From contig JAGGUG010000076.1 in the NCBI GenBank assembly GCA_021158625.1, forward strand, positions 1 to 37,946: a stretch of DNA of 37,946 nt. Direction: 5' to 3'. Position numbers and translations under genes: made by a program. Numbering within the stretch: the first letter of the stretch is position 1; each line of letters begins with the position of its first letter. Origin of the DNA: Candidatus Omnitrophota bacterium. Lineage in GTDB: Bacteria > Omnitrophota > 4484-213. Positions 3,980 to 37,946 of the stretch are shown here, in pieces. The notes under the pieces are model-generated. The model saw only the letters and a program-made list of their open reading frames with translations, ran no database searches and was not told the origin of the DNA.

Positions 3980-6584
3980 CTTTATTCTCAGAAAAATAAT
4001 CGGCACTCAGAATCAGCGGGCGTTGAGAAAGATGGCTCCTGTTGTAGAAAGGATAGAAAGTCTCGAGCCGTCTATCTCTGCTCTCACCGATGACGAACTG
4101 CAGGCAAAGACAGAGGAGTTTAGAGAGCGTCTTAATAAAGGAGAGACTCTGGACGACCTTCTCCCGGAGGCGTTTGCCGTTGTCCGCGAGGCGGGCAAGC
4201 GGACGATAAATATGCGCCATTTTCCGGTTCAACTCATCGGTGGGATTGTTTTGCATCAGGGGAAGATTGCCGAGATGGCCACTGGAGAAGGGAAAACATT
4301 GGTGGCTACCTTAGCGGCTTACTTAAATGCTCTAAGCGGTAAAGGGGTGCACATTGTTACCGTAAATGACTATTTAGCCCGCAGAGACCGCCAGTGGATG
4401 GGGCCAATCTATGAATTTCTCGGGCTTAGTGTAGGGGTAATCCAGCAAGGGATGTCCCCCCAGCAGCGACGTGCCGCCTACAACTGCGATGTTACCTATG
4501 GCACTAACAACGAATTTGGTTTTGATTATCTGCGAGACAATATGGTTGTTTCTATAGAAGATAAGGTACAAAGAGGGCTACATTACGCGATTGTTGATGA
4601 GGTGGATAGCATCCTCATCGATGAGGCCCGTACCCCCCTAATTATCTCCGGTCCGAGCGAGGAATCAACAGATAAATATTATAAGGTAGATAGAATAATC
4701 CCGCTGCTTAAGAAAGGCGAGAGGGATGAGGTGAGCAAAGAGGAAAGAGGGGATTATATTGTCGATGAAAAACACAAGACCTCTTATCTAACTGAACAAG
4801 GGGAGATTAAGGCGGCTAAACTCTTGGGGCTAAAGGATATGCATAGTTTGACAACAATGGAATACAAACACCATGTCAATCAGGCATTGCGTGCGCACAA
4901 CAATTATAAGCGTGATGTTGATTATATGGTCAAAGACAATCAGGTGGTTATTGTCGATGAGTTCACTGGACGATTAATGCCCGGGAGAAGGTGGTCAGAT
5001 GGGTTGCACCAGGCAATTGAGGCAAAAGAAAGGGTAAAGATTGAAAGAGAGAACCAGACCTTAGCTACAATTACCTTTCAGAATTATTTCCGGATGTATG
5101 AGAAACTTGCGGGAATGACCGGCACTGCGGCTACCGAGGCATCAGAGTTTTTGCAGATTTATAAGTTGGATGTAGTGGTTATTCCCACCAATAAGCCATT
5201 AAACAGAACAAATTATCCCGATGTAATCTATAAAACCGAGCGGGAGAAGTTTAATGCCGTAGTGAAAGAAATTGAAGAGCTCCACAAGCAGGGACGGCCA
5301 GTATTAGTGGGCACGGTCTCTATTGAGAAATCCGAGCGGTTGAGCCAGTTGTTAAAAAGAAAGAATATTATGCACTCGGTGTTAAATGCTAAATATCACG
5401 AGCGCGAGGCAGAAATAGTTGCCTTAGCCGGACAGAGGAATGCCGTGACCATTGCTACGAATATGGCTGGGAGAGGCACAGATATTGTTTTAGGAGAGGG
5501 AGTAGCGGAGTTAGGGGGACTGCATATTATCGGCACCGAGAGACACGAAGCCCGCCGAATTGACAATCAACTGCGCGGGCGTGCTGGCCGACAGGGCGAC
5601 CCTGGTTCATCGCGTTTTTATCTTTCCTTGGAAGATGATCTCCTGCGTCTATTTGGCTCGGAGAGGATAATGGGGATGATGAAGCGTTTGGGAATACCGG
5701 AGGGGCAAGCAATCGAGCATAAACTGATTACCCGGGCCATTACTACTGCCCAGAAGAGAGTAGAGGCGATGAATTTTGATATTCGCAAGCAACTTTTGGA
5801 CTACGATAATGTGATGAATAAACAACGCGAGGTGATTTATAAACAACGCGAGGTGATTTTAAAAGGAGAGAATTTAGAGGAGGAGATAAACAGGATGATT
5901 GAATCAGTTTTGGAAAGAGGGCTACAGAGTTATCTCCCTTCTCCAAATACTGATGAACACTGGGACTTAGTCGGCCTTGAGAGATGGTTAAAGCAGAAAT
6001 TTGGAATAGAAAAGCAGATGGATATTAAGGGAGAAGTTCGTCCGCATCTTGTTTATCATGAGATTAAAGAGAATTTATTAAACAAGATAAAGAGTCTCTA
6101 CAGACAAAAGAAGCAGAGGATTGGGGAATCAGCAATGGAATATTTGGAAAGAAGAGCAATGCTTCAGGTGTTGGATACAAAATGGAAAGAACACCTCTAC
6201 GCAATGGACAGTTTGCGTGAGGGGATTGGACTCAGGGCTTATGGTCAGCGCGATCCTCTGGTAGAGTATCAACACGAATCCTTTGCAATGTTTTCGGAGA
6301 TGATAGAGAGAATAGAGGAGGAATCTCTGGAGTTTATATTCAAGGCAGAGCCGATTCAAGAGGAGGTCACGAGCGTATTTTCTGTTCCTCAGGAGTTTGT
6401 GCATAAGGAGATGGCCGGATTAGAGAAGGCCCGGGCAAGGAAAACTCAATTAGAGCCCCCTGTCTCCCCACCGCCTTCTGCCAATATCACCTATCGCCGC
6501 TCAGGAAAAAAGATTGGTCGCAACGAACCCTGCCCCTGCGGCAGTGGGAAGAAATATAAGTATTGCTGTGGAAGAAACGAGTAA
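3972..6584 (+). CDS. secA: Preprotein translocase ATPase SecA
   Basis: MATGEGKT Walker [31 protein letters not shown]-terminal zinc motif [14 protein letters not shown]. Overlaps the prfB stop by 8 nt. Confidence 0.97.
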
Positions 6585-9159: not shown

Positions 9160-9194
9160 AATATGAGCGGATGCAAGGAAAGAAAGTAAATAAA

Positions 9195-9373
9195 GGCGTC
9201 CGCCTCTGGCGGACTATCCTCAGCCCCGAAGTTTCGGGGCTTCGGCTCTCGCTTCGCGAGTAAGGAAGAAAAACAAAAAGCGGAAATCTGCTTTGCAGAT
9301 TTCCTATCCTCAGCCCGCCTACGCTAAAGCTTTGGCGGGCTTCGGCTCTCGCTTCGCGAGTAAGGAAAGGAGG
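9195..9373 (+). repeat. Two tandem copies of a multi-hairpin leader module, each ending in CTTCGGCTCTCGCTTCGCGAGTAAGGAA; the second copy ends in the ribH Shine-Dalgarno
   Basis: Hairpins GTCCGCC-TCT-GGCGGAC (9198-9214) and GGAAATCTGC-TTT-GCAGATTTCC (9282-9304). TATCCTCAG at 9215 and 9305. Identical 29-mers start at 9240 and 9340. A third copy lies at 27966-28015. Confidence 0.85.
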
Positions 9374-9858: not shown

Positions 9859-9979
9859 CCCCACACCAATTTCTCTTTTGCTTAAGCATCTTGGAAAATT
9901 GGCGGGGGGTTCAATTCGCAAACGGAGTTCGTTCCACAATTTAGGTGGCTTACATTCCGTAAATTGTCTGCTCATTGAA
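9859..9979 (+). repeat. Two-hairpin intergenic module (H1 CCCCACACCAATTT.../...AAATTGGCGGGGGG, then H2 TTCAATTC...CATTGAA), copy 1, abutting the nusB ATG
   Basis: Its 3' part TTCCGTAAATTGTCTGCTCATTGAA is near-identical to copy 2 at 11646-11670. Confidence 0.65.
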
Positions 9980-9980
9980 A

Positions 9981-10490
9981 ATGCGTAAGAGAACAAGAGC
10001 AAGAGAAATAGCCCTCCAGATTCTTTATCTGATTGATATCAGTGAAGATGATTATCAGGTTGCTTGGGAGAAATTTTGGGCTGTAGAGTCTCCCGAGGTT
10101 TCTGAGGAGGCTCATCCTGTTAAATCCGCCGATGGCGGAGCGGCGAAGCCGCTATTTAACAGGGTAAAGGAATTTTCACAGCAATTAGTAAAAGGGACGA
10201 TAGAGAATCTTAAATCGCTCGATGATGTAATTGAGAGCTTCACCGAGAACTGGCGACTCTCGCGGATGGCAGTGGTTGAGCGGAATATTCTGCGGCTTGC
10301 TACCTATGAACTCCTTTTTTGCCCTGAGATTCCTCCAATTGTCTCCATAAACGAGGCAATTGACCTGGCAAAGAAATACAGCGGTCTGGAAGCCGGTAAA
10401 TTCGTGAACGGGATACTGGATAAGATAAGAATCTCCAAGCTGCAAGCCACAAGCTCCAAGCTACAGGCTGACTCAAACCCTGAAGTTTGA
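9981..10490 (+). CDS. nusB: Transcription antitermination factor NusB (carries an internal element insertion and a repeat-derived C-terminal tail)
   Basis: RTRAREIALQILY, WRLSRM..VERNILRLATYEL, INEAIDLAKKY...KFVNGILDKI. Confidence 0.9.
   Translation: MRKRTRAREIALQILYLIDISEDDYQVAWEKFWAVESPEVSEEAHPVKSADGGAAKPLFNRVKEFSQQLVKGTIENLKSLDDVIESFTENWRLSRMAVVERNILRLATYELLFCPEIPPIVSINEAIDLAKKYSGLEAGKFVNGILDKIRISKLQATSSKLQADSNPEV
10113..10166 (+). repeat. 54-nt copy of the TACCCTGTTAAAT palindromic element, in frame in nusB
   Basis: CATCCTGTTAAAT + CCGCC-GAT-GGCGG + AGCGGC-GAA-GCCGCT + ATTTAACAGGGTA; encodes HPVKSADGGAAKPLFNRV. Confidence 0.8.
10434..10468 (+). repeat. Heptamer array (NNCAAGC x5) forming the nusB C-terminal tail
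   Basis: TCCAAGC TGCAAGC CACAAGC TCCAAGC TACAGGC; translated as SKLQATSSKLQA after the conserved NGILDKI end. Confidence 0.8.
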
Positions 10491-10497
10491 TTTTTAT

Positions 10498-11571
10498 ATG
10501 ATGAGCGATGTTGAATATATGCAGTTAGCCCTGCGATTGGCTTTAAAGGGAAAGGGGAAAACCAGCCCCAATCCCTTGGTAGGAGCAGTAGTAGTTAAAA
10601 ACGGAGAGATTATCGGCAGAGGCTATCATCGGCAGGCCGGCAAGAGGCACGCCGAGATTGTTGCCCTTGACGAGGCCGGCAAAAAGGCAAGGGGTTCTAC
10701 GCTCTATGTCAATTTAGAGCCCTGTGCTACTTATGGTAGAACCCCTCCCTGTGTGGATAGGATTATCAAGGAAGGAGTTAAAAAGGTAGTTATTGGAATG
10801 CTTGACCCCAATCCTGTCAATAGAAAAAAGGGGATAAGAAAATTAAAGACGCAGAACATAGATGTAAAGACGGGAGTTTTAACGAAAGAAGCCGAGGAGC
10901 TCAATAAGTGCTGGATAAAGTTTATCACCCAGAGGGAGCCGTATGTGATTCTGAAAGTAGCCCGGTCCTTAGACGGCAAGATTGCCACTTTTACGGGCGA
11001 TTCAAAATGGATTACTTCGCCGGCAGCGCGAGGATATGTGCATAGACTACGTTCGGAGGTGGATGCGATTTTGGTAGGGATAAATACAGTTCTCCAGGAT
11101 GATCCTTTGCTCTCCGCCCGCCTTTCCGAAAAGAGATTATACAGACATCAGCCGACAAAGATAATCTTAGACAGCCATTTAAGAGTTCCTTTAGAGGCAA
11201 AGATTTTTTCTCGCCGGTCCCCGGCACCGGTAATTATCGCTACCACTAAATTTGCTCCTCTCTCTAAAATAAAGAAATTAGAAAAAAAGGGAGTGCAGGT
11301 ATTAATAGTCAAGGCAAAGGATAGGAGACTAGATTTAAAGATGTTGATGGGAGAATTGGCAAAGATGGAGATTGTTTGTCTTTTGATAGAGGGCGGAGGT
11401 GAGGTTTTTGAATCGGCTATAGAAAGCAAGATAGTGGATGAATTTCTTGTTTTTATTGCTCCAAAAATATTTGGCAATGTTAGCAAAGTCTCTCAAGCCC
11501 AGCGATTGAGCAGTTTGGAAATAAAGAAAGTAGGAGAAGATGTATTGCTGGAAGGCTTAACCCAGCACTAA
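10498..11571 (+). CDS. ribD: Bifunctional riboflavin biosynthesis deaminase/reductase
   Basis: Deaminase HAEI...PCATYGRTPPC, then a reductase domain with KVARSLDGKIA and GGGEV. Confidence 0.93.
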   Translation: MMSDVEYMQLALRLALKGKGKTSPNPLVGAVVVKNGEIIGRGYHRQAGKRHAEIVALDEAGKKARGSTLYVNLEPCATYGRTPPCVDRIIKEGVKKVVIGMLDPNPVNRKKGIRKLKTQNIDVKTGVLTKEAEELNKCWIKFITQREPYVILKVARSLDGKIATFTGDSKWITSPAARGYVHRLRSEVDAILVGINTVLQDDPLLSARLSEKRLYRHQPTKIILDSHLRVPLEAKIFSRRSPAPVIIATTKFAPLSKIKKLEKKGVQVLIVKAKDRRLDLKMLMGELAKMEIVCLLIEGGGEVFESAIESKIVDEFLVFIAPKIFGNVSKVSQAQRLSSLEIKKVGEDVLLEGLTQH

Positions 11572-11670
11572 TTTTTCAAAGATGTTTGCCCAAAGTAGAA
11601 AATTAGTGCTGGGTTCAATTCGCACAGCGATTTACGAGCACTTCGTTCCGTAAATTGCGTACTCATTGAA
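11561..11670 (+). repeat. Two-hairpin intergenic module, copy 2 (H1 11561-11613, H2 11614-11670)
   Basis: H1 is CCCAGCACTAATTTT...AAAATTAGTGCTGGG, a 15-bp stem that contains the ribD stop codon. H2 is TTCAATTCGCA...CTCATTGA, and its last A is the A of the ribE ATG. Confidence 0.8.
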
Positions 11671-12314
11671 TGTTTACCGGCATAATCGAACAATTAGGTG
11701 AAGTCACAAAGGTAGAATCTGCCTCCGGCAATAAAAGATTGTTTATCAAACCGACCTCTTTGTGGGAGGATTTACAGATAGGGGAAAGCATTGCTGTAGA
11801 TGGGGTTTGCTTGACTATTGTTGATTTTAAAGAGGACTTGTTTGCCGCTGAAATAATGCCGGCGACCCTCTTGCAAACCACTTTAGGCAATTTAAGGATT
11901 GGCGAGTATGTAAATTTAGAGCGGGCATTAACTCCAAATTCTCGTTTAAGTGGCCACTTTGTCAGCGGTCATATTGACGGAATGGGCATAATTAGCAAAA
12001 AAGAAAAGGGAAGAGATGTTAGTTTATCTGTTGAGGTCCCTGCCGAGCTCAGGAAATACCTTTTGCCCAAGGGTTCTATTGCGGTAGATGGAATAAGTTT
12101 AACTATCGCTGAGATAAAAGACAAAGAATTTATTGCCCATCTCATTCCCCATACTTTAAAGAGTACCAATCTGCAATCTAAAAATGTAGGGGATAAAGTA
12201 AATATTGAGATAGACCTTCTAACAAAAGCAGTTTATCAGTATCTACAGAGGAACTCTGACAAAGACAAACAGGGAATAACAAAAGAGATGTTGAGCAGAG
12301 CCGGGTTCCTCTAA
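11670..12314 (+). CDS. ribE: Riboflavin synthase alpha chain
   Basis: MFTGIIE..G, two lumazine-binding repeats (VDGVCLT / VDGISLT), HLIPHTL. Confidence 0.93.
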   Translation: MFTGIIEQLGEVTKVESASGNKRLFIKPTSLWEDLQIGESIAVDGVCLTIVDFKEDLFAAEIMPATLLQTTLGNLRIGEYVNLERALTPNSRLSGHFVSGHIDGMGIISKKEKGRDVSLSVEVPAELRKYLLPKGSIAVDGISLTIAEIKDKEFIAHLIPHTLKSTNLQSKNVGDKVNIEIDLLTKAVYQYLQRNSDKDKQGITKEMLSRAGFL

Positions 12315-13486
12315 CCTCTTCCCAGCCCTCTTAAGAACCCCATTATCTTCTCTTTCCATCCTTTTTTGATTCTCTCTTGCTCAGAACTCAGGATTTTAGA
12401 GAGCGGTTCTATATCTATATAATCCTCAGCGAGTTTTTTGAGAGCGGCAATCTTTTTGCTATCCTGGGTGGTTATCTTCGTGCGTAAACTGTATATCTGA
12501 GAGGCGAGTTCGTAGATATCCTTATCTACGAGCAATACGGGAATATCCATAGAGCCAAGGATGTCTCTTATACTCTGGGGAAGCTCCCGGCTTCCCGAAA
12601 GGAGAACTCCTGCTAAATTATGGGCATTTCCTATATTTTTAAAGTAGGTGGTAAATACTGCCAAGAGAAGGTCGATGCGGTCGCTGGAGGTAATCAATAA
12701 AGTCTGTTGGCGAATATCTCTGAGCAATTCCAGTATTGTTTCCGGCTCCATTGTTCCCACTATTATCCTTTCTATATTCTTTTCTAAACGCCCTTTCCCA
12801 CTGAGTATATTTGCTCCGGTTTGTTGGGCAATCAACCAGAGAGGAGGACTGGAGAGAAGAGAACGGTAGGGGAGAAGACCGAATAGAGGGATGCTTTTTC
12901 TTTTGAGGTATTGCTTTAGGAGAGAAGAAACCTTATCGTATTTTTCCTCTAATATCTTATTGATTATCACCCCGATTACCTTACAGCCCTTCTCTTCAAA
13001 AAAACTTTTATTTAGGGTTATCTCATCAATGCTCTGCCCAATGCCTCCCCCGCAGACCAAAAGCACATCCGCCTCTAAGAGTTTAGCCACTTCGGCATTG
13101 GAGAGCTCTATTACCGAACCTACCCCGGCGTGGCCCGTGCCTTCAATGAGCACCAAATCGCTTTCCTTTGCCAGTCCTTCATAGGCGTCGCGTATCTTTT
13201 TGGCAAGACCCCTTCCTATCTTTCCTTTGATATATTTTTCGGTAAAGCCCCTTTCAATTATCAGTGGGCTCATATCCTCTATAAGATAAGGGAGGGCAAA
13301 GCTCTCCTTGATTAAAAGGACATCTTCGCCTACCTTAGTTTCGGGAAGTTGGACATATCTCTGGGCAAGCGGCTTGATAAAGGCAATCTTCTTAAATTTT
13401 TTGCCTAAAAGATGGATCAATCCCAGAGAAATAGAGGTCTTCCCAATATCCTGGCTGGTAGAAGCAATGAATAAAGACTTAGCCAT
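12311..13486 (-). CDS. BioD/CobQ-like P-loop plus DRTGG domain protein (resembles the N-terminal part of phosphotransacetylase; no PTA catalytic domain)
   Basis: N-terminal STSQDIGKTSISLGL P-loop-like motif, EGTGHAGVG, and SSDRIDLLL (DRTGG-like). The length of 391 aa is too short to include a Pta catalytic domain. Confidence 0.7.
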   Translation of the reverse strand: MAKSLFIASTSQDIGKTSISLGLIHLLGKKFKKIAFIKPLAQRYVQLPETKVGEDVLLIKESFALPYLIEDMSPLIIERGFTEKYIKGKIGRGLAKKIRDAYEGLAKESDLVLIEGTGHAGVGSVIELSNAEVAKLLEADVLLVCGGGIGQSIDEITLNKSFFEEKGCKVIGVIINKILEEKYDKVSSLLKQYLKRKSIPLFGLLPYRSLLSSPPLWLIAQQTGANILSGKGRLEKNIERIIVGTMEPETILELLRDIRQQTLLITSSDRIDLLLAVFTTYFKNIGNAHNLAGVLLSGSRELPQSIRDILGSMDIPVLLVDKDIYELASQIYSLRTKITTQDSKKIAALKKLAEDYIDIEPLSKILSSEQERIKKGWKEKIMGFLRGLGRG

Positions 13487-14405
13487 AATTTCGGGTTGCG
13501 GGTAAAGGGTTGCGGGGTGCGAATTTCCCGCTTCCCGCTAACCGCTCAAGAACTTGCAGGTACTTCTTACTCGTCTTATCAACTATCTCCGCCGGCAATT
13601 CGGGAGCAGGTGGAGTTTTATCCCAGTTTAAACTCTCCAGGTAATCGCGCACAAACTGTTTGTCAAAACTGGCTTGACTTTTGCCCGCAGAGTACTTATC
13701 CTTAGGCCAGAACCTTGAGGAGTCCGGCGTGAGCAATTCGTCGATAAGGATAATTTCGCCCTTATAGAAACCAAACTCAAACTTTGTATCGGCAATAATT
13801 ATACCCTTAGTTTCGGCATATTCACTCGCTTTTTTATACAGGGCAATGCTTATCTCTTTTAGTTTGCCGGCGGTGTTTTTACCAATTTCTTTTTCAATAT
13901 CCTCTTGGCGGACATTTATATCGTGACCCCTCTCCTCTTTTGTTGCCGGAGTAAAAATAGGTTCGGGTAGTTTATCAGCCTGTTTAAGTCCCTCAGGCAG
14001 TTTTATTCCGCAGATGGATTGGCTCTTCTCATATTCTTTCCAACCTGAACCGGCTAAATAGCCCCGAACTACACATTCCACAGGTATGGGCTCTGCCTTT
14101 TGGACGAGCATTGCGCGGCCAGACAGAATTTCTTTATATTTTGATAGAACAGGAGGAAACTCACGAATATCAGCGCTGAGCAAGTGATTGGGGATAATAT
14201 CTTTTGTTAAGTGGAACCAGAACGCCGAGAGTTTGGTTAACACCTCCCCTTTGTGAGGAATGCCGGTAGGGAGAACTACATCAAAGCAGGATATTCTATC
14301 GGTGGAGATAATCAAGAGTTGAGTTCCTAAATCATAGATATCCCGGACCTTTCCTCTTTTGAAAAGATTGAGTTCAGTAAGGTTTGTTGACTCTACGAGC
14401 GGCAT
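13479..14405 (-). CDS. purC: Phosphoribosylaminoimidazole-succinocarboxamide (SAICAR) synthase, long form
   Basis: GKVRDIYD, ISTDRISCFD, IIIADTKFEFG, LIDELLTPDSSRFW. Confidence 0.93.
   Translation of the reverse strand: MPLVESTNLTELNLFKRGKVRDIYDLGTQLLIISTDRISCFDVVLPTGIPHKGEVLTKLSAFWFHLTKDIIPNHLLSADIREFPPVLSKYKEILSGRAMLVQKAEPIPVECVVRGYLAGSGWKEYEKSQSICGIKLPEGLKQADKLPEPIFTPATKEERGHDINVRQEDIEKEIGKNTAGKLKEISIALYKKASEYAETKGIIIADTKFEFGFYKGEIILIDELLTPDSSRFWPKDKYSAGKSQASFDKQFVRDYLESLNWDKTPPAPELPAEIVDKTSKKYLQVLERLAGSGKFAPRNPLPATRNYG
13493..13548. repeat. Heptamer-periodic imperfect palindrome (GGGTTGC GGGTAAA GGGTTGC GGGGTGC | GAATTTC | CCGCTTC CCGCTAA CCGCTCA) spanning the purC 3' end
   Basis: Direct reading. 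GCGGG blocks in the left half are complementary to CCCGC blocks in the right half, in 7-nt phase. Confidence 0.7.
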
Positions 14406-16230
14406 TTAATCTCCTCTTTTGTTCCTCGAGAATCTCAAACAAAATCTTGGGGGCATCAGGGACCTTTGTTTTATAAATTTCTATGATTCTTTCTACTTTT
14501 GCTAGGTTAGCATCAATTCTCAAGGTAAATTCTTTCTGATAATCCCTTTCTGAATAATCCTTGCCCAGCACTTGCTTAAATAATCTTTTGAGGTCTTCAT
14601 AGCGAGGGAGGAATCCAATCGGGCTTTCAATCGCTTCTATTTCCTTATGCACCCTGAGTTCCATCCATTTAAGCCAGACCCTTTTATCCTCTATCGCACT
14701 CAGATAGTTGCCATTTTCATCTCTCAGAAAATAATTTACTCCAAAGATAGTAGGCGGATGAGCTAAATCCTTTGCAAATTGTAGATGGTTTTGTATATAT
14801 TTCCCGATGGGTATAGAAAGAAAGTCCAGATTTGCCATCGGATTGAGCTTTCGCACCCCTTGTTTCCCTAAAGTGGCAGCTGTAGTTTCTGATTCCAGGG
14901 AGGCAGCGATAGTTATTACCCCATGATTCCAATCAAAACTCTCAAATACTGATGGCCAGGCTTCTGCATCTCGGCCTCCGTAGATTATACCTTTAACCTC
15001 CACGCCCTCGGGATTTTCTAAATTCGGGTCGCAGTTTTTCAGCGTCTTCAGTCTAATGGTATATCTGGCATTGGGGTGGGGAAAAATAGTAGAATTTTTA
15101 GGATGAACTTTTCCATCGTTCAGCCAATAGGGAATGCCGTCTCTGACCAGGACATTGGAAAAAATAACCTCGCCCGGACTCGTCAGCGTCTGCCAGATTA
15201 GAGGATCATTTTGGGGGTTCACATCCCTTATTATTCCAAATATCCCCCTCTCTACATTTACGGCAAATACCTTCCCGTCCTTTTTTCGCAAATAGGCAAT
15301 ATCATCTCCTACTATGCTTTCTTCTTCCACCATACAGGTGGAGGTTTTTCCGCAGGCGCTGGGGAAGGCACCCGTAAAATAGGTTTTTCTATTGTTGGGG
15401 CCATTTACCCTGTTAAATAATCCCGAATAAGTCGGGATTCCGCCTTTGGCGGATTTGACAGGGTAAACCCCCATAACAAACATATGTTCGGCAAGCCAGT
15501 TCTCTTTGCTTGCTTTATTTATTGCCAGACGCAGGGCTAATTTTTTCAAACCCACAGTATTTCCGGCATATTGGCTATTGACTGTCCAAACAGTATTCTC
15601 GGAGAGGTCTATATATACCCTCCTCTTATCTATATTTTTGCTTACACTATTCTCTAATTCTCCGGCAGAGTGAACGAATTTAAAAAATTCTGTCTCGGTT
15701 CCTTTTTTCTTAAATACATCATAAGCCGAGCGGTAGAGGATGTCCTCGGAGTGGGCTACATAGGCCGAGTCGGTGAGTTGAACGGCATAGATAGAAAAAT
15801 CTGAATTCACTGGCCCAAGGCAAAGGAACAAAACAAACATTTCTTTGCCCGACATAATACCTTTTAATAGGGCTTGGATTTCAGATAGCCCTTTTTCTCG
15901 GACTATGGAATTAATATCCGAACCGAGGTTTTCGCCTTTACTTAGAAGGAATTTTGTATTCTGTTTATCCCTTGCCTGGTCAGTGGGTCCATCAAAGTGG
16001 ACAGTGTGGCCGTCTATGTTAAGTTGCTTTTCCTCCCCCAATTCCTTTGCCTTGTTTCTTATATATTGAGCGTCTTGCAGAGAATCGCTACGCACAAAGA
16101 CTGAGCGAGGATTGCAAAGCTCTACATATTCCCCGAGGAAATTAAGCAGTATGGGGTTATTTAAGGCAAGCAATTTCTGGTAGTTTTCTTGACTGCATTT
16201 AGTTTTAAATAGTTTTTGATGCCTTTTCAT
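14374..16230 (-). CDS. pckG: Phosphoenolpyruvate carboxykinase (GTP)
   Basis: FPSACGKT kinase-1a motif, GDDIAY, YGGRD, and other GTP-PEPCK signatures. 618 aa. Confidence 0.95.
   Translation of the reverse strand: [618 protein letters not shown]
15406..15465. repeat. Exactly 60-nt palindromic element (TACCCTGTTAAAT ... ATTTGACAGGGTA) in frame in pckG
   Basis: 13-nt inverted termini plus internal hairpins AATCCCGA-ATAAG-TCGGGATT and CCGCC-TTT-GGCGG. On the coding (minus) strand it encodes [20 protein letters not shown]. Confidence 0.88.
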
Positions 16231-18802: not shown

Positions 18803-19767
18803 AAACAACCACAGTAGGAAGTTTACCCAAGCCGGATTATCTAAAAAGGGCCCGCACTGATTTTCGTCAGAATAGAATTAGTCGCGAAGAACTAAAGAGG
18901 TTAGAAAAAAAGGCCACTGCCGAGTGGGTAAAGATTCAAGACGAAATTGGTCTGGATGTTTTGGTTGACGGAGAGATGTACCGCGGCGATATGGCTACCT
19001 ACTTTGCCGAAAACCTGAGCGGTTTTAAGATTAGTGGATTGGTGCGTAGTTATGGTAATCGTTATTATCGCAAGCCCATAGTTGTTGGGAAGATTAAAAG
19101 AGAAAAGCCAATTACCTTAGAGATGTTCAGATTTGCTCAGGGTTTAACTAAAAAGCCGGTTAAAGGGATGCTCACCGGCCCTTACACAATGGCTGATTGG
19201 TCGTTTAATGAATACTATCCCGACCGCCGCAGTTTGGTTCTGGATTTAGCCGAGGCAATTCATAAGGAAGCTGTAGATTTAGAAAAAGCCGGGGCAAAAT
19301 ATATTCAGATTGACGAGCCAGCGGTTTCCACCCATCCTGAAGAAATTGATTTGGCTATTGAAGCGATGAGGGTTGTGACTGCCGACTTAAAGGTAACTAC
19401 CATTACCCATATCTGCTATGGAGATTTTGTCAAGATTTATCCGAGGATGCTGGAGTTAGCCGTTGACCAATTTGACCTTGAGTTTGCCAATCGTCAATTT
19501 GAACTCTTACAACTTATTGAGGAAAAGGGAGGATTCAACGATAAGCAAATTGGTTTAGGGGTTATTGATGTTCATTCACACAGGATAGAAACCAAGGAGG
19601 AAGTTAAGGAGAATTTGCGCAAAGCCCTCAAGGTTTTTAAACCTGAGCAGATTTTTGTTGACCCGGACTGCGGCTTGAAGACACGCACAAAAGAAGAAAG
19701 TATAGCAAAGCTAAGGGTAATGGTGGAGGCCACGGAAGAGATAAGAGAAGAAATGGCCAATGTCTAA
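18796..19767 (+). CDS. metE: Short 'core' cobalamin-independent methionine synthase (MetE catalytic-domain type)
   Basis: VGSLPKP, VDGEMYR, IQIDEPA, HICYGD (HxC), GVIDVHS, DPDCGLKTR zinc-ligand pattern. Confidence 0.82.
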   Translation: MLKTTTVGSLPKPDYLKRARTDFRQNRISREELKRLEKKATAEWVKIQDEIGLDVLVDGEMYRGDMATYFAENLSGFKISGLVRSYGNRYYRKPIVVGKIKREKPITLEMFRFAQGLTKKPVKGMLTGPYTMADWSFNEYYPDRRSLVLDLAEAIHKEAVDLEKAGAKYIQIDEPAVSTHPEEIDLAIEAMRVVTADLKVTTITHICYGDFVKIYPRMLELAVDQFDLEFANRQFELLQLIEEKGGFNDKQIGLGVIDVHSHRIETKEEVKENLRKALKVFKPEQIFVDPDCGLKTRTKEESIAKLRVMVEATEEIREEMANV

Positions 19768-19911
19768 TTGCTCTAATTGACCTAAATAAAGCCCAATGAT
19801 TAATGACTGGATGTAAGAATATTAGACATTTTAGCATTAGACATTGACTTGCCTCGCTGAAGCTCTGGCGAAGCGGGTTAGACATTAGGTTAATTAGAAA
19901 TTAGACATTTT
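19759..19911. repeat. Heptamer-armed hairpin element (AATGTCTAATT... / ...TAATTAGAAATTAGACATTTT) between metE and the tonB-like gene
   Basis: The outer arms 19759-19787 and 19879-19911 are imperfect inverted repeats. The metE stop codon lies in the left arm. The core holds the GC hairpin CCTCGCTGAAGC...GCGAAGCGGG. Confidence 0.7.
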
Positions 19912-19917
19912 AAAGTT

Positions 19918-20772
19918 GTGTCTCTGAGCTCTCTCCAAAAAAGATTTAGTTTAAGCTTTCTGATTTCTCTGAACATTCACATAGCTCTTTTTTTGTGTTT
20001 TTCTCCTCATTTTAATGCCTCCTCTTTTTCTTCTCCCCGGATTATATATTATCAGAGAGAAACTAGAAGACAACCGCCGAAAGCGAGCCTCGCCAAAGGC
20101 GGGAAAACACCAGAAAAGAAGATAGACAATAAAAAAAAAGAGGTTAAACTTGATAAAATAGAAGTAAAAAAAAGGTCACCAGGTTACCATGGCACCCTTG
20201 CCCGCCGAAATCCGCAGGGTGAAAGCAGAAGGCAAAAGCAGAAAAAAAACATAAAACCCAGAATCAAGAACCGAATAGCGATAAAAGATAGAATATTTAC
20301 CCCCTTAGAAAACTCCACCTCTCCGTGGGCCGGGAAAGAATGTTTATTAAGAAAGGGCGGGGGGAAAGCCCCGTCCTTTCTAACGGGGTTTACTAAAAAA
20401 GTAAGCTCAAGAGAAGATCAGCAACAAAAAGAAGAGAAAATTCTCATAGAGCAGAAGCGTCAGAAAAAGGTTCTTGAGAAAAGAAATTTATTAAGTTATT
20501 ATCGAGTTATCAGTGAACAGATTAAGCAAAAGGCAGTTTATCCTGAAGAGGCAAGAAGGAGTTTAAGTGAAGGATTGGTTTATATCTCTTTTACTGTTTT
20601 TGACGATGGTCGTTTGAAAGAGATAGAACTTAAGGTCTCTTCAGGAAATGATTACCTGGATAAAGCGGCTTTGCGCAGTGTCCAGGAGGCTGCCCCTTTT
20701 CCGCCGTTCCCAGCAGAAATAAAAGAAAGAGAGCTGTGTCTGAATATCCCTATTTCTTTTGAAATAGAATAA
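19918..20772 (+). CDS. TonB-like energy transducer (N-terminal TM, Lys-rich linker, TonB C-terminal domain); GTG start
   Basis: C-terminal YPEEARRSLSEGLVYISFTV...G.L.EIELKVSSGNDYLDKAALRSVQEAAPFPPFP. No exbBD genes are adjacent. Confidence 0.75.
   Translation: MSLSSLQKRFSLSFLISLNIHIALFLCFSPHFNASSFSSPRIIYYQRETRRQPPKASLAKGGKTPEKKIDNKKKEVKLDKIEVKKRSPGYHGTLARRNPQGESRRQKQKKNIKPRIKNRIAIKDRIFTPLENSTSPWAGKECLLRKGGGKAPSFLTGFTKKVSSREDQQQKEEKILIEQKRQKKVLEKRNLLSYYRVISEQIKQKAVYPEEARRSLSEGLVYISFTVFDDGRLKEIELKVSSGNDYLDKAALRSVQEAAPFPPFPAEIKERELCLNIPISFEIE
20296..20394 (+). repeat. 93-bp in-frame palindromic insertion in the tonB-like gene (same family and frame as the gatA insertion)
   Basis: ACCCCCTTAGAAA versus TTTCTAACGGGGT inverted termini. 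F-T codons are duplicated 93 nt apart. Internal hairpin AGAAAGGGCGGGG / CCCCGTCCTTTCT. Encodes FTPLENST...FLTGFT. Confidence 0.65.
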
Positions 20773-20917: not shown

Positions 20918-21150
20918 AAATGTCTAATGACTAATTAACCTAATTGACCTAATGAATGACTAATGACAAACATTTAATGTCTAAACAATTATTAGTTTAC
21001 CCCGTTAATAATTCACAAAGCAAATTACCCTCTTAAATAAAATCTTTGATTTTCTTTTGCTGAAAGCAAAAGATTTAGCAGGGTATTTAAGGGGATGAAT
21101 GGACATTAGGCATTGATTAGACATTAGAGTAATTAGAAATTAAACATTTT
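20918..21150. repeat. Second TTAGACA-type heptamer-armed hairpin element with nested palindromes, upstream of rpsU
   Basis: Left arm AAATGTCTAATGACTAATTAACC...; right arm ...GACATTAGAGTAATTAGAAATTAAACATTTT. The core has TACCCCGTTAATAA.../...TATTTAAGGGGA and CTTTTGCTGAAAGCAAAAG. The last 21 nt are 20/21 identical to 19891-19911. Confidence 0.7.
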
Positions 21151-22800: not shown

Positions 22801-22810
22801 ATGAAACTCA

Positions 22811-22964
22811 GCCCAGCACTAATTTTTCGGGATACTTAACCGTAGCAGAAAATTAGTGCCGGGCTCAATTCCACCATACAATTTAGTCTCCTTGCCCCGA
22901 TACCATCCCCACGTTCGTCGGGGCCTACGGGGCAGGCAGTCGCCTAAATTGTGGTGTCATTGAA
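22811..22964 (+). repeat. Two-hairpin intergenic module, copy 3 (H1 22811-22864, H2 22865-22964), between pilC and clpC
   Basis: The H1 stem GCCCAGCACTAATTTT/AAAATTAGTGCCGGGC matches the copy 2 stem but has a different loop. H2 is TCAATTCCACCATACAATTTAG...CTAAATTGTGGTGTCATTGA with an inner GC-rich hairpin. Confidence 0.75.
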
Positions 22965-26229: not shown

Positions 26230-26973
26230 ATGATTAAGATAAGGAACTTACGAAAATCCTTTGGCGAGCACCTAATTTTGGATAATTTGAATTTAGATGT
26301 TCGTAGAGGCGAGACAATGGTAATTATTGGGCGAAGTGGTTGCGGGAAGAGTGTTTTGTTGAAGCATATTGTGGGTATTCTCAAGCCGGATAGAGGAGAG
26401 ATTTTTGTAAACGGAGAAAATATAGTTAATTTAGATAGAAAGAGATTGAGTGAACTACGGATGAAGATAGGCGTGCTCTTTCAGGAAGGTGCATTATTTG
26501 ATTCGCTCACTGTGGGAGAGAATGTAGGTTTTTTGTTGTTAGAACACAGCAAGAAAAGTCGGAGGGAGATTTTTGAGAAATATGTTCGAGAAAAGCTGGC
26601 AATGGTTGGCTTGAGCGGTGTGGAGGACTTAAGGCCGGCTGAACTCAGTGGAGGAATGAAAAAACGCGTAGGTTTAGCCCGGGCAATCTGCGCCAATCCC
26701 GAGCTCATCCTTTACGATGAACCAACCACTGGTGTTGACCCGATTATGGCTGCGGTGATTAACGACCTCATCAGAAAATTGCATAATCAATTAAAAGTAA
26801 CCTCAGTAGCAGTTACTCACGATATAAAAAGCGCCTACAAAATAGCCGACCGCATCGCAATGCTCTATCAGGGAAAGATTATTGAAGTTGGCACTCCCCG
26901 GGAGATTAAAAATAGTTCTAATCCAGTCATTCAGCAATTTATAAAAGGGGAAAAGGAGGGCCCAATTAAATAA
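26230..26973 (+). CDS. mlaF: Phospholipid ABC transporter ATP-binding protein MlaF
   Basis: GRSGCGKS Walker A, LSGGMKKRVGLARA signature, LILYDEPT Walker B. Confidence 0.9.
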   Translation: MIKIRNLRKSFGEHLILDNLNLDVRRGETMVIIGRSGCGKSVLLKHIVGILKPDRGEIFVNGENIVNLDRKRLSELRMKIGVLFQEGALFDSLTVGENVGFLLLEHSKKSRREIFEKYVREKLAMVGLSGVEDLRPAELSGGMKKRVGLARAICANPELILYDEPTTGVDPIMAAVINDLIRKLHNQLKVTSVAVTHDIKSAYKIADRIAMLYQGKIIEVGTPREIKNSSNPVIQQFIKGEKEGPIK

Positions 26974-27208
26974 AATTCCAAATCACAAATTCCAAATCAC
27001 AAATAAATTCCAATTGACCCTGTTAAATGCCACTTCGTGGCAATTTCGCCTCTGGCGGAATTATTTAACAGGGTGAACCCAAAAAAATAACAAGAGAATG
27101 TCTTTAAGTAGGTGTTTTGGTCATTGCTTATTGGCTAGGGGACTTGCCCGCAGGGCGAGTATATTTGGAATTTATTTGTTATTTGGTGCTTGGAATTTGG
27201 TGCTTCAC
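26974..27208. repeat. About 235-nt long inverted-repeat element with CCAAAT-type heptamer arms and no ORF, between mlaF and mlaD
   Basis: Left arm AATTCCAAATCACAAATTCCAAATCACAAATAAATTCCAA; right arm TTGGAATTTATTTGTTATTTGGTGCTTGGAATTTGGTGCTTCAC. There is a 15-nt perfect complementary core. A 23-mer at 27170-27192 is the exact reverse complement of 37562-37584. Confidence 0.75.
27016..27075. repeat. 60-nt TACCCTGTTAAAT-family element nested inside the long inverted repeat
   Basis: GACCCTGTTAAAT + GCCAC-TTC-GTGGC + AATTTCGCC-TCT-GGCGGAATT + ATTTAACAGGGTG. Confidence 0.85.
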
Positions 27209-27219
27209 TGGGGGTAGGC

Positions 27220-27957
27220 ATGCACATAAGGACAGAGTTTAAAGTAGGTCTATTTGTTTTTCTGGCTTTGCTTATCTTTTTTGTTATTGTTTTTTTTATC
27301 GGCGATTTTTCCTTAAAGCAGGGTTATACCCTTTTTGTCCGCTTTAATTTTGTGAATGGCTTAGAACCAGCCGCCCCCGTGAGATTAGCCGGCGTAAAGG
27401 TGGGAGAGGTGAAAGAAATAAAGGTGACTAAAAATCGCCCGCCGGTGGAAGTTCGGTTATGGCTCAAGAAAGGAACTCCTGTTGAAAGGAACTGCCGGGT
27501 TTACATCAACAGTTTAGGGCTGTTGGGGGAGAAGTATGTGGAGATTTCGCCCGGCAAATCCTCTGTTTTAATCAAACCTGGAGAAACAATTATTGGCTGC
27601 GACCCTGTTTCTCTTCAGCAACTTTCTCATTTAGGTGAACAAACGATTAGAAAGGTAGATAGAGTAATTGGGAATTTAGAAGAGATAATCAGCGACGAGG
27701 AGGTGAGGAGGGATATAAAGGAGATAATCAAGGATAGCAAGCAATTGAGCCAGCAGCTCAATGTTGTTGTTGATGAAGCGAATCAATCCTTAGCCAATCT
27801 CAATTTTATCTTTGAGCGGATAAACAGAGGAGAAGGGACAATCGGTAAACTTCTCAGCGATGAGGAGTTGTATAATGAAATTAGGGATTTGGTCCAGGAT
27901 ATCAAAAAACATCCCTGGAAGTTGTTCTGGAAAACGAAAGAGAAAAGGAAAAAATAA
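27220..27957 (+). CDS. mlaD: MlaD (MCE-domain) periplasmic lipid-binding protein
   Basis: N-terminal TM (VGLFVFLALLIFFVIVFFIG), MCE domain GL...APVRLAGVKVGEV. The ATG at 27220 is preferred. The track TTG at 27190 lies in the repeat arm. Confidence 0.85.
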   Translation: MHIRTEFKVGLFVFLALLIFFVIVFFIGDFSLKQGYTLFVRFNFVNGLEPAAPVRLAGVKVGEVKEIKVTKNRPPVEVRLWLKKGTPVERNCRVYINSLGLLGEKYVEISPGKSSVLIKPGETIIGCDPVSLQQLSHLGEQTIRKVDRVIGNLEEIISDEEVRRDIKEIIKDSKQLSQQLNVVVDEANQSLANLNFIFERINRGEGTIGKLLSDEELYNEIRDLVQDIKKHPWKLFWKTKEKRKK

Positions 27958-27965
27958 ATAAGAGC

Positions 27966-28015
27966 GTCCGCCTTTGGCGGACTTCGGCTCTCGCTTCGCG
28001 AGGAAGGAAAGGAGG
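27966..28015 (+). repeat. Third copy of the leader module (GTCCGCC-TTT-GGCGGAC + CTTCGGCTCTCGCTTCGCGAGGAAGGAAAGGAGG), supplying the gap Shine-Dalgarno
   Basis: 33 of 34 nt are identical to 9340-9373. It ends 5 nt before the gap ATG. Confidence 0.85.
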
Positions 28016-30489: not shown

Positions 30490-31464
30490 ATGAGAATTTT
30501 GGTTACCGGTGGTGCGGGGTTTATTGGCTCGCATCTCTGCAAGAGATTTATTGAGCAAGGAAATAAAGTAATCTGCATAGATAATTTTATTACCGGCACA
30601 AAGAAAAACATAGAAGAACTACTGCATTCTTCAAACTTTAAATTAATTGAACGCGACATATCAATACCTCTGTATATAGAGGAAGATTTAGATTGGGTTC
30701 TTCATTTCGCTTCTTTAGCCTCCCCCAAGCACTATCTAAACTATCCCATTAAAACACTCAAATCCGGTCTTTTGGGCACTTATAATTGCCTTGGATTAGC
30801 AAAGGAAAAAAAAGCAAAATTTTTCCTGGCTTCTACCTCTGAGGTCTATGGCGACCCCTCAATCCATCCGCAACCCGAGGAGTATTGGGGAAATGTTAAT
30901 CCTATCGGGCTCCGGAGTTGTTATGATGAGAGCAAGCGCGCGGCTGAAGCCCTAACCTATGCCTATATGCGTCAGCACAATTTAGATGTTCGAGTGGCGC
31001 GTATATTTAATAGCTATGGTCCGAATATGCAAGCAGACGATGGAAGGGTTGTCTCTAATTTTATTGTTCAAGCATTAAAGGGTAAGGATTTAACCGTGTA
31101 TGGAGAGGGTAATCAAACCCGTTCTTTTTGCTATATTAATGATTTAATAGAAGGAATTTTAAAAATGATGGAGGTTGATTATAAGTTGCCTTTAAATTTA
31201 GGAAGTTCTTCCGAGTTTAAGATTATTGAAGTGGCTAATTTGGTATTAAAATCTACAAATTCAAACTCAAAGATAAAATTCCTACCCTTGCCTGAAGATG
31301 ACCCCAAGCGAAGAAAACCTGATATAAGTAAAGCTAAAAAGATATTAAACTGGCAGCCAAGAGTTTCCCTGGAAGAGGGTTTAAAGAAAACAATAGAGTT
31401 TTTTACCCTGTTAAATTGTTCGCCGAAGGCGAACACCTCACAAAGCGAGGATTTAACAGGGTAA
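30490..31464 (+). CDS. UDP-glucuronate decarboxylase (UDP-xylose synthase-like SDR)
   Basis: VTGGAGFIGSHL, STSEVYGDP, YDESKR, RIFNSYGP. The last 19 aa and the stop codon come from the repeat element. Confidence 0.88.
   Translation: MRILVTGGAGFIGSHLCKRFIEQGNKVICIDNFITGTKKNIEELLHSSNFKLIERDISIPLYIEEDLDWVLHFASLASPKHYLNYPIKTLKSGLLGTYNCLGLAKEKKAKFFLASTSEVYGDPSIHPQPEEYWGNVNPIGLRSCYDESKRAAEALTYAYMRQHNLDVRVARIFNSYGPNMQADDGRVVSNFIVQALKGKDLTVYGEGNQTRSFCYINDLIEGILKMMEVDYKLPLNLGSSSEFKIIEVANLVLKSTNSNSKIKFLPLPEDDPKRRKPDISKAKKILNWQPRVSLEEGLKKTIEFFTLLNCSPKANTSQSEDLTG
31404..31463. repeat. Exactly 60-nt TACCCTGTTAAAT-family element forming the uxs 3' end
   Basis: TACCCTGTTAAAT + TGTTCGCC-GAA-GGCGAACA + CCTC-ACAAAGC-GAGG + ATTTAACAGGGTA. 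The TAA stop at 31462-31464 is formed by the last two element bases (TA) plus the next base. Confidence 0.88.
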
Positions 31465-37545: not shown

Positions 37546-37610
37546 GTGAAATTCCAAATCCCAAGCACCAAATAACAAATAAATCTCAAGCACCAAATCC
37601 CAATGACCGA
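37546..37610 (+). repeat. CCAAAT-type heptamer arm preceding the four-helix-bundle gene
   Basis: GTGAAATTCCAAATCCCAAGCACCAAATAACAAATAAATCTCAAGCACCAAATCCCAATGACC. It shares an exact 23-mer (as reverse complement) with the right arm of the element at 26974-27208. Confidence 0.75.
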
Positions 37611-37621
37611 AACAGAGACAA

Positions 37622-37946
37622 ATGGATAATTATGATTTAGAAGAGCGAACTTATCAGTTTGCTAAAGAAGTTGCTTTATTTGTAAAGAAACTGCCAAAGA
37701 CAATTGCAAATATAGAATATGCAAGACAAGTAATAAAATCCTCAGGTTCGACAGGAGGAAATTATATTGAAGCTAATGAATCCTTGAGCAAAAAAGGATT
37801 TTGTAATGAGAATTAAAATTTGCCGCAAGGAAGCAAAAGAATCTGCTTATTGGTTAAGATTACTTGTAGATACAAATTCAGAGGATTTCAGACAAGAAGG
37901 TTTGTCCCTCAAGAAAGAGGCTACAGAATTAAAGAAAATTTTCTCC
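37622..37946 (+). pseudogene. Four-helix-bundle protein (23S rRNA intervening-sequence protein / Avd family), interrupted by a 1-nt frameshift in an A6 run and truncated by the window end
   Basis: Frame 0 gives MDNYDLEERTYQFAKEV...GNYIEANESLSKK, then stops at 37814-37816. The +1 frame from 37797 continues the family pattern: DFVMRIKICRKEAKESAYWLRLLVDTN...ELKKIFS. Removing one A from 37790-37795 restores the frame. Confidence 0.7.

Follow-up and report, generated by a model that had tools for sequence, protein, structure and literature searches.

The element in pckG and its copies in the window

The stretch analyzed here, a 37,946-nt contig of a Candidatus Omnitrophota bacterium (JAGGUG010000076.1, assembly GCA_021158625.1; hereafter the window), carries a gene for GTP-dependent phosphoenolpyruvate carboxykinase (PEPCK), pckG (14374–16230, minus strand, 618 aa; identified by PF17297, PF00821 and phmmer against the PDB), into which a 60-nt palindromic element is inserted in frame at 15406–15465. 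As the initial annotation had it, exactly in both sequence and coordinates, the element consists of TACCCTGTTAAAT, 34 nt and ATTTGACAGGGTA, and reads in full TACCCTGTTAAAT-AATCCCGAATAAGTCGGGATT-CCGCCTTTGGCGG-ATTTGACAGGGTA. The two arms (15406–15418 and 15453–15465) are complementary except for one T:G / C:A mismatch, and the interior contains the hairpins AATCCCGA-ATAAG-TCGGGATT and CCGCC-TTT-GGCGG. On the minus strand the element corresponds to residues 256–275 of PckG, directly after ...EHMFVMGV and shortly before the P-loop. The same insertion is present in four sibling contigs of a JGI metagenome (99.9–100% identical, with a few single-nucleotide polymorphisms (SNPs)) and in an ENA-derived protein cluster.

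The earlier proposal that the extra 20 residues of PckG equal the element precisely was confirmed by several comparisons. The phmmer alignment to PEPCKs of the PDB (M. tuberculosis 4wiu) opens a 20-residue gap precisely over the element-encoded peptide, and 118 of 120 database PckG homologs have a clean gap at the insert, the insert itself being found only in an identical protein (P0001). Among the 120 homologs, P0004 retains an 8-aa remnant at the site, V-YPVKLFAK-NN, and the nearest ortholog, P0002 from Ca. Omnitrophica bacterium 4484_213, has 598 residues, that is, 618 minus 20. At the DNA level the site reads GTT[60 nt]AAT GGC in the window and is empty in L125 (GTT|GGC GGC), a 93%-identical relative, and in L127 (ATT|GGC GGC; L numbers denote loci). 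A third relative, L123, has GTT-TACCCTGTTAAAT-TGTTCGCC-AAA-AAT AAT at this site, comprising the left arm and half of a different hairpin followed by a deletion; judged by its sequence, this remnant derives from a copy of another subfamily that sat at the position identical to that of the window insert and has since decayed.

An AlphaFold model of PckG built from 55 sequences has a mean predicted local distance difference test score (pLDDT) of 86.4 and a predicted template modeling score (pTM) of 0.88. The sole long segment below pLDDT 50 (residues 261–276) lies inside the insert and has no secondary structure, and the modeled insert joins the strand 251–255 to the strand 283–287 upstream of the P-loop. 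The insert is thus predicted to be a 20-residue disordered surface loop at the β-turn before the P-loop, with the enzyme fold intact.

Within the window, the 13-nt arm has 12 matches with up to two mismatches against 1.18 expected, a number reached by none of 100 shuffled sequences. In total the window contains five elements, one of which is nested in a variant-armed copy, and all five fold as a basal stem with two hairpins on either strand (z-scores −3 to −8). The recurrences listed in the initial annotation (10113–10166, 27016–27075 and 31404–31463) are true members of the family, but the copy at 10113 is 54 nt rather than 60 nt long and the fifth copy, at 21026–21085, had been overlooked. 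The copy at 10113–10166, with a 28-nt interior and a left arm, CATCCTGTTAAAT, that carries two mismatches, lies in nusB (9975–10490, plus strand), where it translates on the plus strand as HPVKSADGGAAKPLFNRV in the context ...SEEA-HPVKSADGGAAKPLFNRV-KEF...; the in-frame placement described earlier for both pckG and nusB was therefore correct. The intergenic copy at 21026–21085 (60 nt) is AT-rich in its interior, its arms (TACCCTCTTAAAT / ATTTAGCAGGGTA) being slightly degenerate, and sits directly behind the left arm of the outer, variant-armed element (20998–21097; arms TACCCCGTTAAT at 20998–21009 and ATTTAAGGGGATG at 21085–21097), which encloses it as a nested insertion. L125 shows the same nested arrangement with outer arms GACCCCGTTAAAT / ATTAACGGGGTGA, the variant arms being compensated in both the window and L125 (CCCCGTTAA(A)T / ATT(T)AA(C/G)GGGG), and in one of its hairpins the inner copy of L125 shows a compensatory change (GC..GC to GT..AC).

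The remaining two copies are both 60 nt long. One, at 27016–27075, lies between an ABC-ATPase gene (26230–26973) and the next gene (27190–27957), in a spacer whose counterpart in the relative L128 yielded no element. The other, at 31404–31463, has perfect 15-bp arms and is located at the 3' end of a 324-aa open reading frame (ORF; 30490–31464, plus strand), two codons ahead of the native stop, where it rewrites the C-terminus: the ending ...EFLI-stop is replaced by a 20-aa tail, and the TAA stop is made up of the last TA of the element and the next base. The ORF has an N-terminal MRILVTGGAGFIG Rossmann motif, and its product would be sugar-nucleotide epimerase/dehydratase-like by motif and paralogy only. 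This copy is near-identical to a Parcubacteria copy (L024), essentially only the loops being flipped (TTC versus GAA).

A cross-phylum family of T-hairpin elements

The family was scanned in one genome per species with the exact pattern CCTGTTAAAT-N24-44-ATTTAACAGG, which returned at least 118 loci from many Patescibacteria lineages (including a complete Nealsonbacteria genome), Omnitrophota, Desulfobacterales / Thermodesulfobacteriota, WOR-3 and Stahlbacteria, and a few others. The repeats that the initial annotation had treated as local belong to a family that crosses phyla and combines invariant arms with freely varying interiors. Among the matches listed, the consensus is TTYR-CCCTGTTAAAT-hairpin-hairpin-ATTTAACAGGG-YRAA, and in the flank logo T makes up 69–78% at positions −4 and −3, followed by Y and R. 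Element lengths range from 50 to 69 nt, with modes at 52 nt in Desulfobacterota and at 60 nt in Patescibacteria and Omnitrophota.

Since the architectures are too heterogeneous for one gap-free alignment, the interiors were evaluated by direct hairpin statistics rather than by a covariance model. Two exactly abutting hairpins, without any unpaired base at the junction, occur in 68 of 114 unique interiors as against 13 of 11,400 shuffles, and the resulting 136 hairpins comprise 76 distinct stem sequences, which amounts to massive covariation. Triloops account for 79% of the loops and C:G closing pairs for 82%, the loops form complementary sets (TTT/AAA and TTC/GAA), and the paired bases are Watson-Crick in 98.5% and G:T in 1.5% of cases. 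Furthermore, related copies occur with inverted loops, the whole interior is inverted between L106 and L114, copies with nested or tandem arms are found in L100, L035 and L125, and there are variants with a single hairpin or with a 124–126-nt interior. Judged by the sequence, the invariant basal stem of about 15 bp (TTYR-CCCTGTTAAAT / ATTTAACAGGG-YRAA) and the two hairpins would form a T-shaped three-way junction within one DNA strand, and we refer to the copies as T-hairpin elements.

These elements constitute a new, apparently undescribed family of mini-elements. At the gathering score Rfam returned no hit in the window and none overlapping the elements in 18 loci, and for the pckG copy at E-values up to 10 it gave only chance miRNA-like hits (E ≥ 0.25). 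In the literature, the arm sequence matched only unrelated primers and shRNAs, and searches by topic, including a 2024 review of MITEs (transposable elements of the miniature inverted-repeat type), yielded nothing resembling the element; the statement that the element was not recognized thus holds for Rfam and the searchable literature. A phage or plasmid origin was rejected, as the motif occurs on only three viral contigs and annotated plasmids and phages searched by BLAST contained no match to the element.

Several groups of loci have particular settings. Some copies occupy ribosomal-protein operon spacers (S13–S11, L24–L14 and upstream of L3). In the complete Ca. Nealsonbacteria genome CP179888.1, a copy (L066:1196-1255) is located about 30 nt upstream of the 23S rRNA 5' end, within the transcribed spacer and behind two tRNAs. 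In WOR-3 / Stahlbacteria (L017, L020, L025, L031, L056, L061, L068, L070, L086, L093 and L116), a 66-nt multi-copy family has the arms CCCTGTTAAAT/ATTTAACAGGG and a conserved 40-nt interior that does not form two hairpins; constant ACCACAGA direct repeats flank it left and right, and the family may represent a site-specific relative of the T-hairpin element. In Desulfobacterales, L079:866-1157 and 11 similar loci contain a 52-nt core within a repeat of about 200 nt with inverted ends GGAAAACGTCCATCTGC ... GCATATGGACATTTTCC; the genomic positions of this longer repeat are unrelated to one another, which marks it as composite.

Insertion site, site reuse and reading frames

Among four syntenic Omnitrophota lineages, identity at third codon positions is 0.70–0.95, and neutral DNA should therefore still align. 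The presence or absence of elements varies among relatives that are 93–96% identical at the nucleotide level. The nusB site was compared in L123, L125/L126 and L127 in addition to the window: it is filled in the window and in L125/L126 (54 nt, same interior) and empty in L123 (GTA|AAG), while in L127 the same nucleotide position is filled by an element of 63 nt in total with an unalignable 37-nt interior. Between L125 and L127 the nusB arms are identical at 26 of 26 positions and the interior is wholly replaced. Sites that are reused, with interiors that change far faster than the background while the arms are kept, indicate an active process rather than passive decay, and this process is either re-insertion at a hotspot or copy-to-copy conversion.

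The comparison of filled and empty pckG and nusB sites revealed a seamless insertion without target-site duplication. Moreover, the flank logo is TT/AA, and covariation of the two positions just outside CCCTG follows the pattern of an inverted and not of a direct repeat; a target-site duplication was rejected on these grounds. The insertion point lies between TT and AA of RTT|AAD; reconstructed targets are GTT|AAT, GTT|AAG, TTT|AAT and ATT|AAC, and in Patescibacteria genes GTT|AAT, ATT|AAA and GTT|AAA. A shared-flank group of Desulfobacterales was rejected as a set of orthologous sites, because the neighboring genes differ and the core lies inside the repeat of about 200 nt, and the Patescibacteria groups are only partly orthologous, with flank similarity over 30–60 nt in ribosomal-protein operon spacers. 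Statements about orthologous sites are hence based on three loci only, nusB, pckG and 21026.

As to the reading frames, the initial annotation had held that the arms are open in only one complete frame. In fact two of the three frames are open, the third being closed by the TAA in GTTAAAT, and the second open frame (T ACC CTG TTA AAT ... TTA ACA GGG TRn) is used by ORF 30490–31464 and by a MotA/ExbB-like gene in L082. Elsewhere, the in-gene hosts encode LeuRS, GatA, KsgA, a GT4 glycosyltransferase, a membrane protein and the MotA/ExbB-like protein. All bona fide in-gene copies are 54, 57, 60 or 63 nt long and use either the frame (Y/H/C)PVK...FNR(V/A) or the second open frame; given the RTT|AAD target, inserts in the former frame always read (V/I/L)-(H/Y/C)PVK...FNR(V/A)-(K/N). 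Intergenic copies, by comparison, have any length from 50 to 69 nt and contain stops at the shuffled rate. The majority of copies lie between genes or at the 3' end of an ORF, the second frame ending there with GGG-TGA/TAA.

Across the family, frame openness equals that of interior-shuffled controls, which means that openness is filtered and not built in, and that the in-gene copies are the filtered subset. An intrinsic coding design of the element was rejected for this reason, and the earlier view that the in-gene copies are what selection left behind fits these controls well. Only copies of a length divisible by three with a stop-free frame persist within genes, and such copies would be transcribed and translated together with their hosts, as their frame and length suggest.

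Interpretation and comparison with known systems

We conclude that the element is probably a small (50–69 nt), non-autonomous mobile DNA palindrome that is translated in frame where it lies within a gene. A trans-acting enzyme would recognize the invariant stem on folded single-stranded DNA and cut at the base of the stem, candidates being an HUH/Y1-type nuclease or a structure-specific recombinase; this specific enzymology is tentative. The interior would only have to form two stable hairpins and would hence be free to change by compensatory mutation, by inversion of a loop or of the whole interior, or by replacement. In coding sequence, only stop-free copies of a length divisible by three survive, and the pckG copy would be translated into a floppy loop. 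Going further, and more doubtfully, the elements might represent a new hairpin-guided kind of mobile DNA, for which an enzyme that Patescibacteria, Omnitrophota, Desulfobacterota and their neighbors share or exchange would read one 15-bp stem, insert and excise seamlessly at RTT|AAD and revisit sites with interiors swapped, in a manner distinct from IS200/IS605, RAYT-REP, integron and DDE-MITE systems. As for the selfish insertion invoked in the initial annotation, the repeated palindromic element and the empty sites in orthologs stand, whereas the attribute "selfish" is plausible rather than proven.

A number of observations weigh against a translated mobile element. The family scan demanded exact 10-nt arms, so that the invariance across phyla is partly built in, although mismatch-tolerant searches of 0.96 Mb of element loci add few degenerate copies. 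In about 1 Mb of sequence, the only gene families found repeatedly within some 4 kb of the elements are housekeeping ones, with no transposase or recombinase family among them, and about 0.96 Mb of loci contained no long, autonomous, gene-carrying version bearing these arms. Reuse of the same site could reflect copy-to-copy conversion instead of re-insertion, and the translation of the inserts is predicted from their frame and length. In addition, the copies next to the 23S rRNA (30 nt upstream), ahead of L3 and in the S13–S11 and L24–L14 spacers could instead point to a structured RNA motif useful to the host, such as an RNase III-type processing site or an mRNA stabilizer or regulator in polycistronic transcripts, with the coding copies as tolerated by-products. 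The strong covariation of the hairpins and the perfect conservation of the arms at the orthologous nusB site would also suit such a motif. However, among 38 copies with an assignable direction of transcription the structure was more stable on the sense strand in 13, on the antisense strand in 10 and tied in 15, and G:U-type pairs numbered 21 in sense versus 24 in antisense. The absence of a strand bias together with the scarcity of G:T pairs (1.5%) favors a strand-symmetric constraint at the DNA level, and an RNA-specific structure was rejected by the strand-bias test. Since the copies also lie in divergent and convergent intergenic regions in either orientation, are nested, vary in presence between close relatives and match no Rfam family, we consider the RNA motif unlikely.

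Strand symmetry, as well as arms that are invariant while the interiors are not, would equally be expected of a DNA site kept for chromosome function and bound by a conserved chromosomal protein, such as a Xer-like recombinase, a nucleoid protein or a replication/repair factor, and the arm indeed has TGTTAAAT in common with the dif XerD half-site TTATGTTAAAT. This match covers only the outer 8 of 11 nt, though, and comes with neither an XerC arm nor a 6-bp center. Furthermore, copies that disrupt the frames of core genes and rewrite one C-terminus are hard to square with a selected site, and nested copies as well as a truncated relic are what one typically sees in mobile DNA; together this makes a host site improbable. 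It is also conceivable that the element is excised from the message like an intron, or bypassed by the ribosome as in mitochondrial byp elements and T4 gene 60, such that the protein lacks the 20 residues. Yeast mitochondria contain small palindromic coding-region inserts that are bypassed, and a very stable hairpin inside the essential-site region of PckG would be in keeping with this idea. Yet excision or bypass would impose no filter on length or frame, whereas the verified in-gene copies are all stop-free and of a length divisible by three and the intergenic ones are not; with no ribozyme or intron hit in Rfam and no matched take-off and landing codons at nusB in addition, we regard this explanation as very unlikely. 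Lastly, palindromes can cause mis-assembly, and one unrelated contig (L009, 6934 nt) is as a whole an inverted self-duplicate with a LeuRS-embedded element near both ends, probably a fold-back mis-assembly. The pckG insertion is not such an artefact because the four sibling contigs, which have independent SNPs, and the ENA-sourced protein cluster also carry it, and with the family in frame in many independent metagenome-assembled genomes (MAGs) and one complete genome, the probability of a chimera is negligible. None of these explanations fits the strand symmetry, the nesting, the polymorphism and the length filter as well as a mobile element does.

Among known systems, the behaviorally closest to this mobile element are the Rickettsia palindromic elements (RPEs), and the likeness in behavior that had been noted initially holds. 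RPEs are likewise palindromic, are inserted in frame into genes with a peptide compatible with the host fold, occur also between genes, and, as in the T-hairpin family, have no mobilizing enzyme assigned to them. The RPE-like, ORF-sparing insertion in frame is observed here in pckG, nusB and the genes for LeuRS, GatA, KsgA, the GT4 glycosyltransferase and the MotA/ExbB-like protein. RPEs are about 100–150 bp long, are confined to Rickettsia and form families each with a conserved sequence and peptide (PMC10969869). By description, the T-hairpin elements differ in size (50–69 nt), in host range, which spans several phyla (Omnitrophota, Patescibacteria, Desulfobacterota and WOR-3, not Rickettsia), in that only the 13–15-nt arms are conserved, and in that frame openness is not intrinsic.

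The repetitive extragenic palindromic sequences (REP/BIME/REPIN), mobilized by the Y1 HUH enzyme RAYT, resemble the T-hairpin elements as short, GC-rich, highly repeated, non-autonomous hairpin sequences that cause no duplication and presumably function in the form of folded single-stranded DNA. One end of a REP is marked by a GTAG or CGTC tag (PMC3733652). In contrast to these extragenic repeats, the T-hairpin family has a two-hairpin interior, enters genes and lacks a tag, the arm consensus TTYRCCCTGTTAAAT / ATTTAACAGGGYRAA containing neither GTAG nor CGTC, and no RAYT-like gene was seen near the elements in flanks of up to 8 kb. Classical bacterial MITEs (e.g., Correia, ERIC, Nezha, QMITE) are similarly small, multi-copy, non-coding and sometimes intragenic, and they share terminal inverted repeats and nesting with our family. 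MITEs normally have a target-site duplication, share their ends with a parent insertion sequence and have copies that are alike over their full length; the T-hairpin elements, on the other hand, have terminal inverted repeats of 13–15 bp, no duplication and interiors unrelated between copies, and no parent insertion sequence with the same ends was found among the roughly 0.96 Mb of element loci.

The best architectural match is the parvoviral inverted terminal repeat (ITR), the substrate of the HUH protein Rep, which we regard as a structural analogy and not as homology, there being no sequence similarity. The ITR of adeno-associated virus 2 (AAV2) comprises a specific stem and two GC-rich arms with C:G-closed AAA/TTT triloops, one arm being CGCCCGGGC-TTT-GCCCGGGCG (PMC10892565, PMC11557940). 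The T architecture and the inversions of loops or interiors, which are reminiscent of flip/flop, are common to both, whereas the AAV ITR, 145 nt long, ends a linear viral genome and functions in replication, and the T-hairpin elements lie internally in chromosomes at dispersed positions. Elements whose HUH nucleases act on folded single-strand hairpins (IS200/IS605, parvoviral ITR type) are inserted and excised seamlessly, without duplication. For the T-hairpin copies, insertion was shown to be seamless and the hairpins to be strand-symmetric and DNA-like; single-strand chemistry and an enzyme of this kind are inferred.

Integron attC sites are imperfect palindromes as well, with GTT/AAC ends (GTTAAAT fits GTTRRRY and ATTTAAC fits RYYYAAC) and a variable, possibly branched interior, and they are recognized as a folded single strand. 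However, the order in attC is 5'-RYYYAAC...GTTRRRY-3', and the T-hairpin elements have it reversed, GTTAAAT ... ATTTAAC; because of this reversal, attC identity was rejected. The T-hairpin stems are also fully paired, with no extrahelical bases, unpaired central spacer, cassette arrays or intI context, and copies are located within genes. Identity with dif, a 28-bp site composed of an XerC arm, a 6-bp center and an XerD arm, was rejected too, as the match is confined to the outer 8 nt of the XerD arm, whose inner bases, reported to be the best conserved, differ.

For 25 years, palindromic repeats that colonize core genes in frame have been regarded as a peculiarity of Rickettsia lacking a known mechanism. 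The present family shows this behavior in a much smaller and better-defined element across phyla, including the genome-reduced Patescibacteria, with PEPCK, NusB, LeuRS, GatA and KsgA among the proteins hit. The contrast between an invariant stem and free hairpins offers a direct handle for finding the enzyme responsible, and the in-gene copies amount to a natural experiment on the tolerance of proteins to loop insertions of 18–21 residues beside active sites. For the annotation of MAGs, the elements produce spurious insertions, C-terminal extensions and stop codons in gene calls.

Other repeats and neighboring features

The window also contains a second, unrelated family of palindromic repeats, AACCCAGCACTAATTTT ... 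AAAATTAGTGCTGGGTT, with arms of 17–25 bp and a spacer of about 22 nt (11559–11615, 22802–22873 and 9877–9917). These repeats directly follow the stops of three genes (ribD-like, T2SSF and ribH) and may be terminator-like. Repeated GC-rich hairpin pairs, GTCCGCC-TCT-GGCGGAC plus CTCGC-TTCG-CGAG, are located at 9183–9273, 9330–9373 and 27951–28015, directly upstream of the Shine-Dalgarno sequences of two genes, and their modules resemble those of the T-hairpin elements but lack the arms. Short periodic repeats of the CCAAATCACAAAT type bracket the copy at 27016 in inverted orientation (26973–27013 and 27165–27208) and occur again at 37546–37623. The ATTTG/CAAAT-rich flanks of one Desulfobacterales copy group (L008, L026, L083 and L092) resemble these repeats, hinting at either a composite element or a favored intergenic context. 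Repeats of the TTAGACATTAG / AAATGTCTAAT type, both direct and inverted, lie on either side of a TonB-like gene (19918–20772) at 19751–19911 and 20918–21150 and adjoin the nested element at 20998–21097.

In L002, around position 6271, a 1-nt indel relative to the sibling contig L003 (at about 9990 of the window) frameshifts the start of nusB and leaves a 72-aa call; this reflects strain variation or an assembly error and is unconnected with the element. L127 contains a block at 10238–13499, between a cobyrinic-acid-synthase-like gene and ribE, that has no counterpart in the window and carries AbiEi/AbiEii, HTH-SocA/Panacea and cupin genes, forming a defense or toxin-antitoxin islet.

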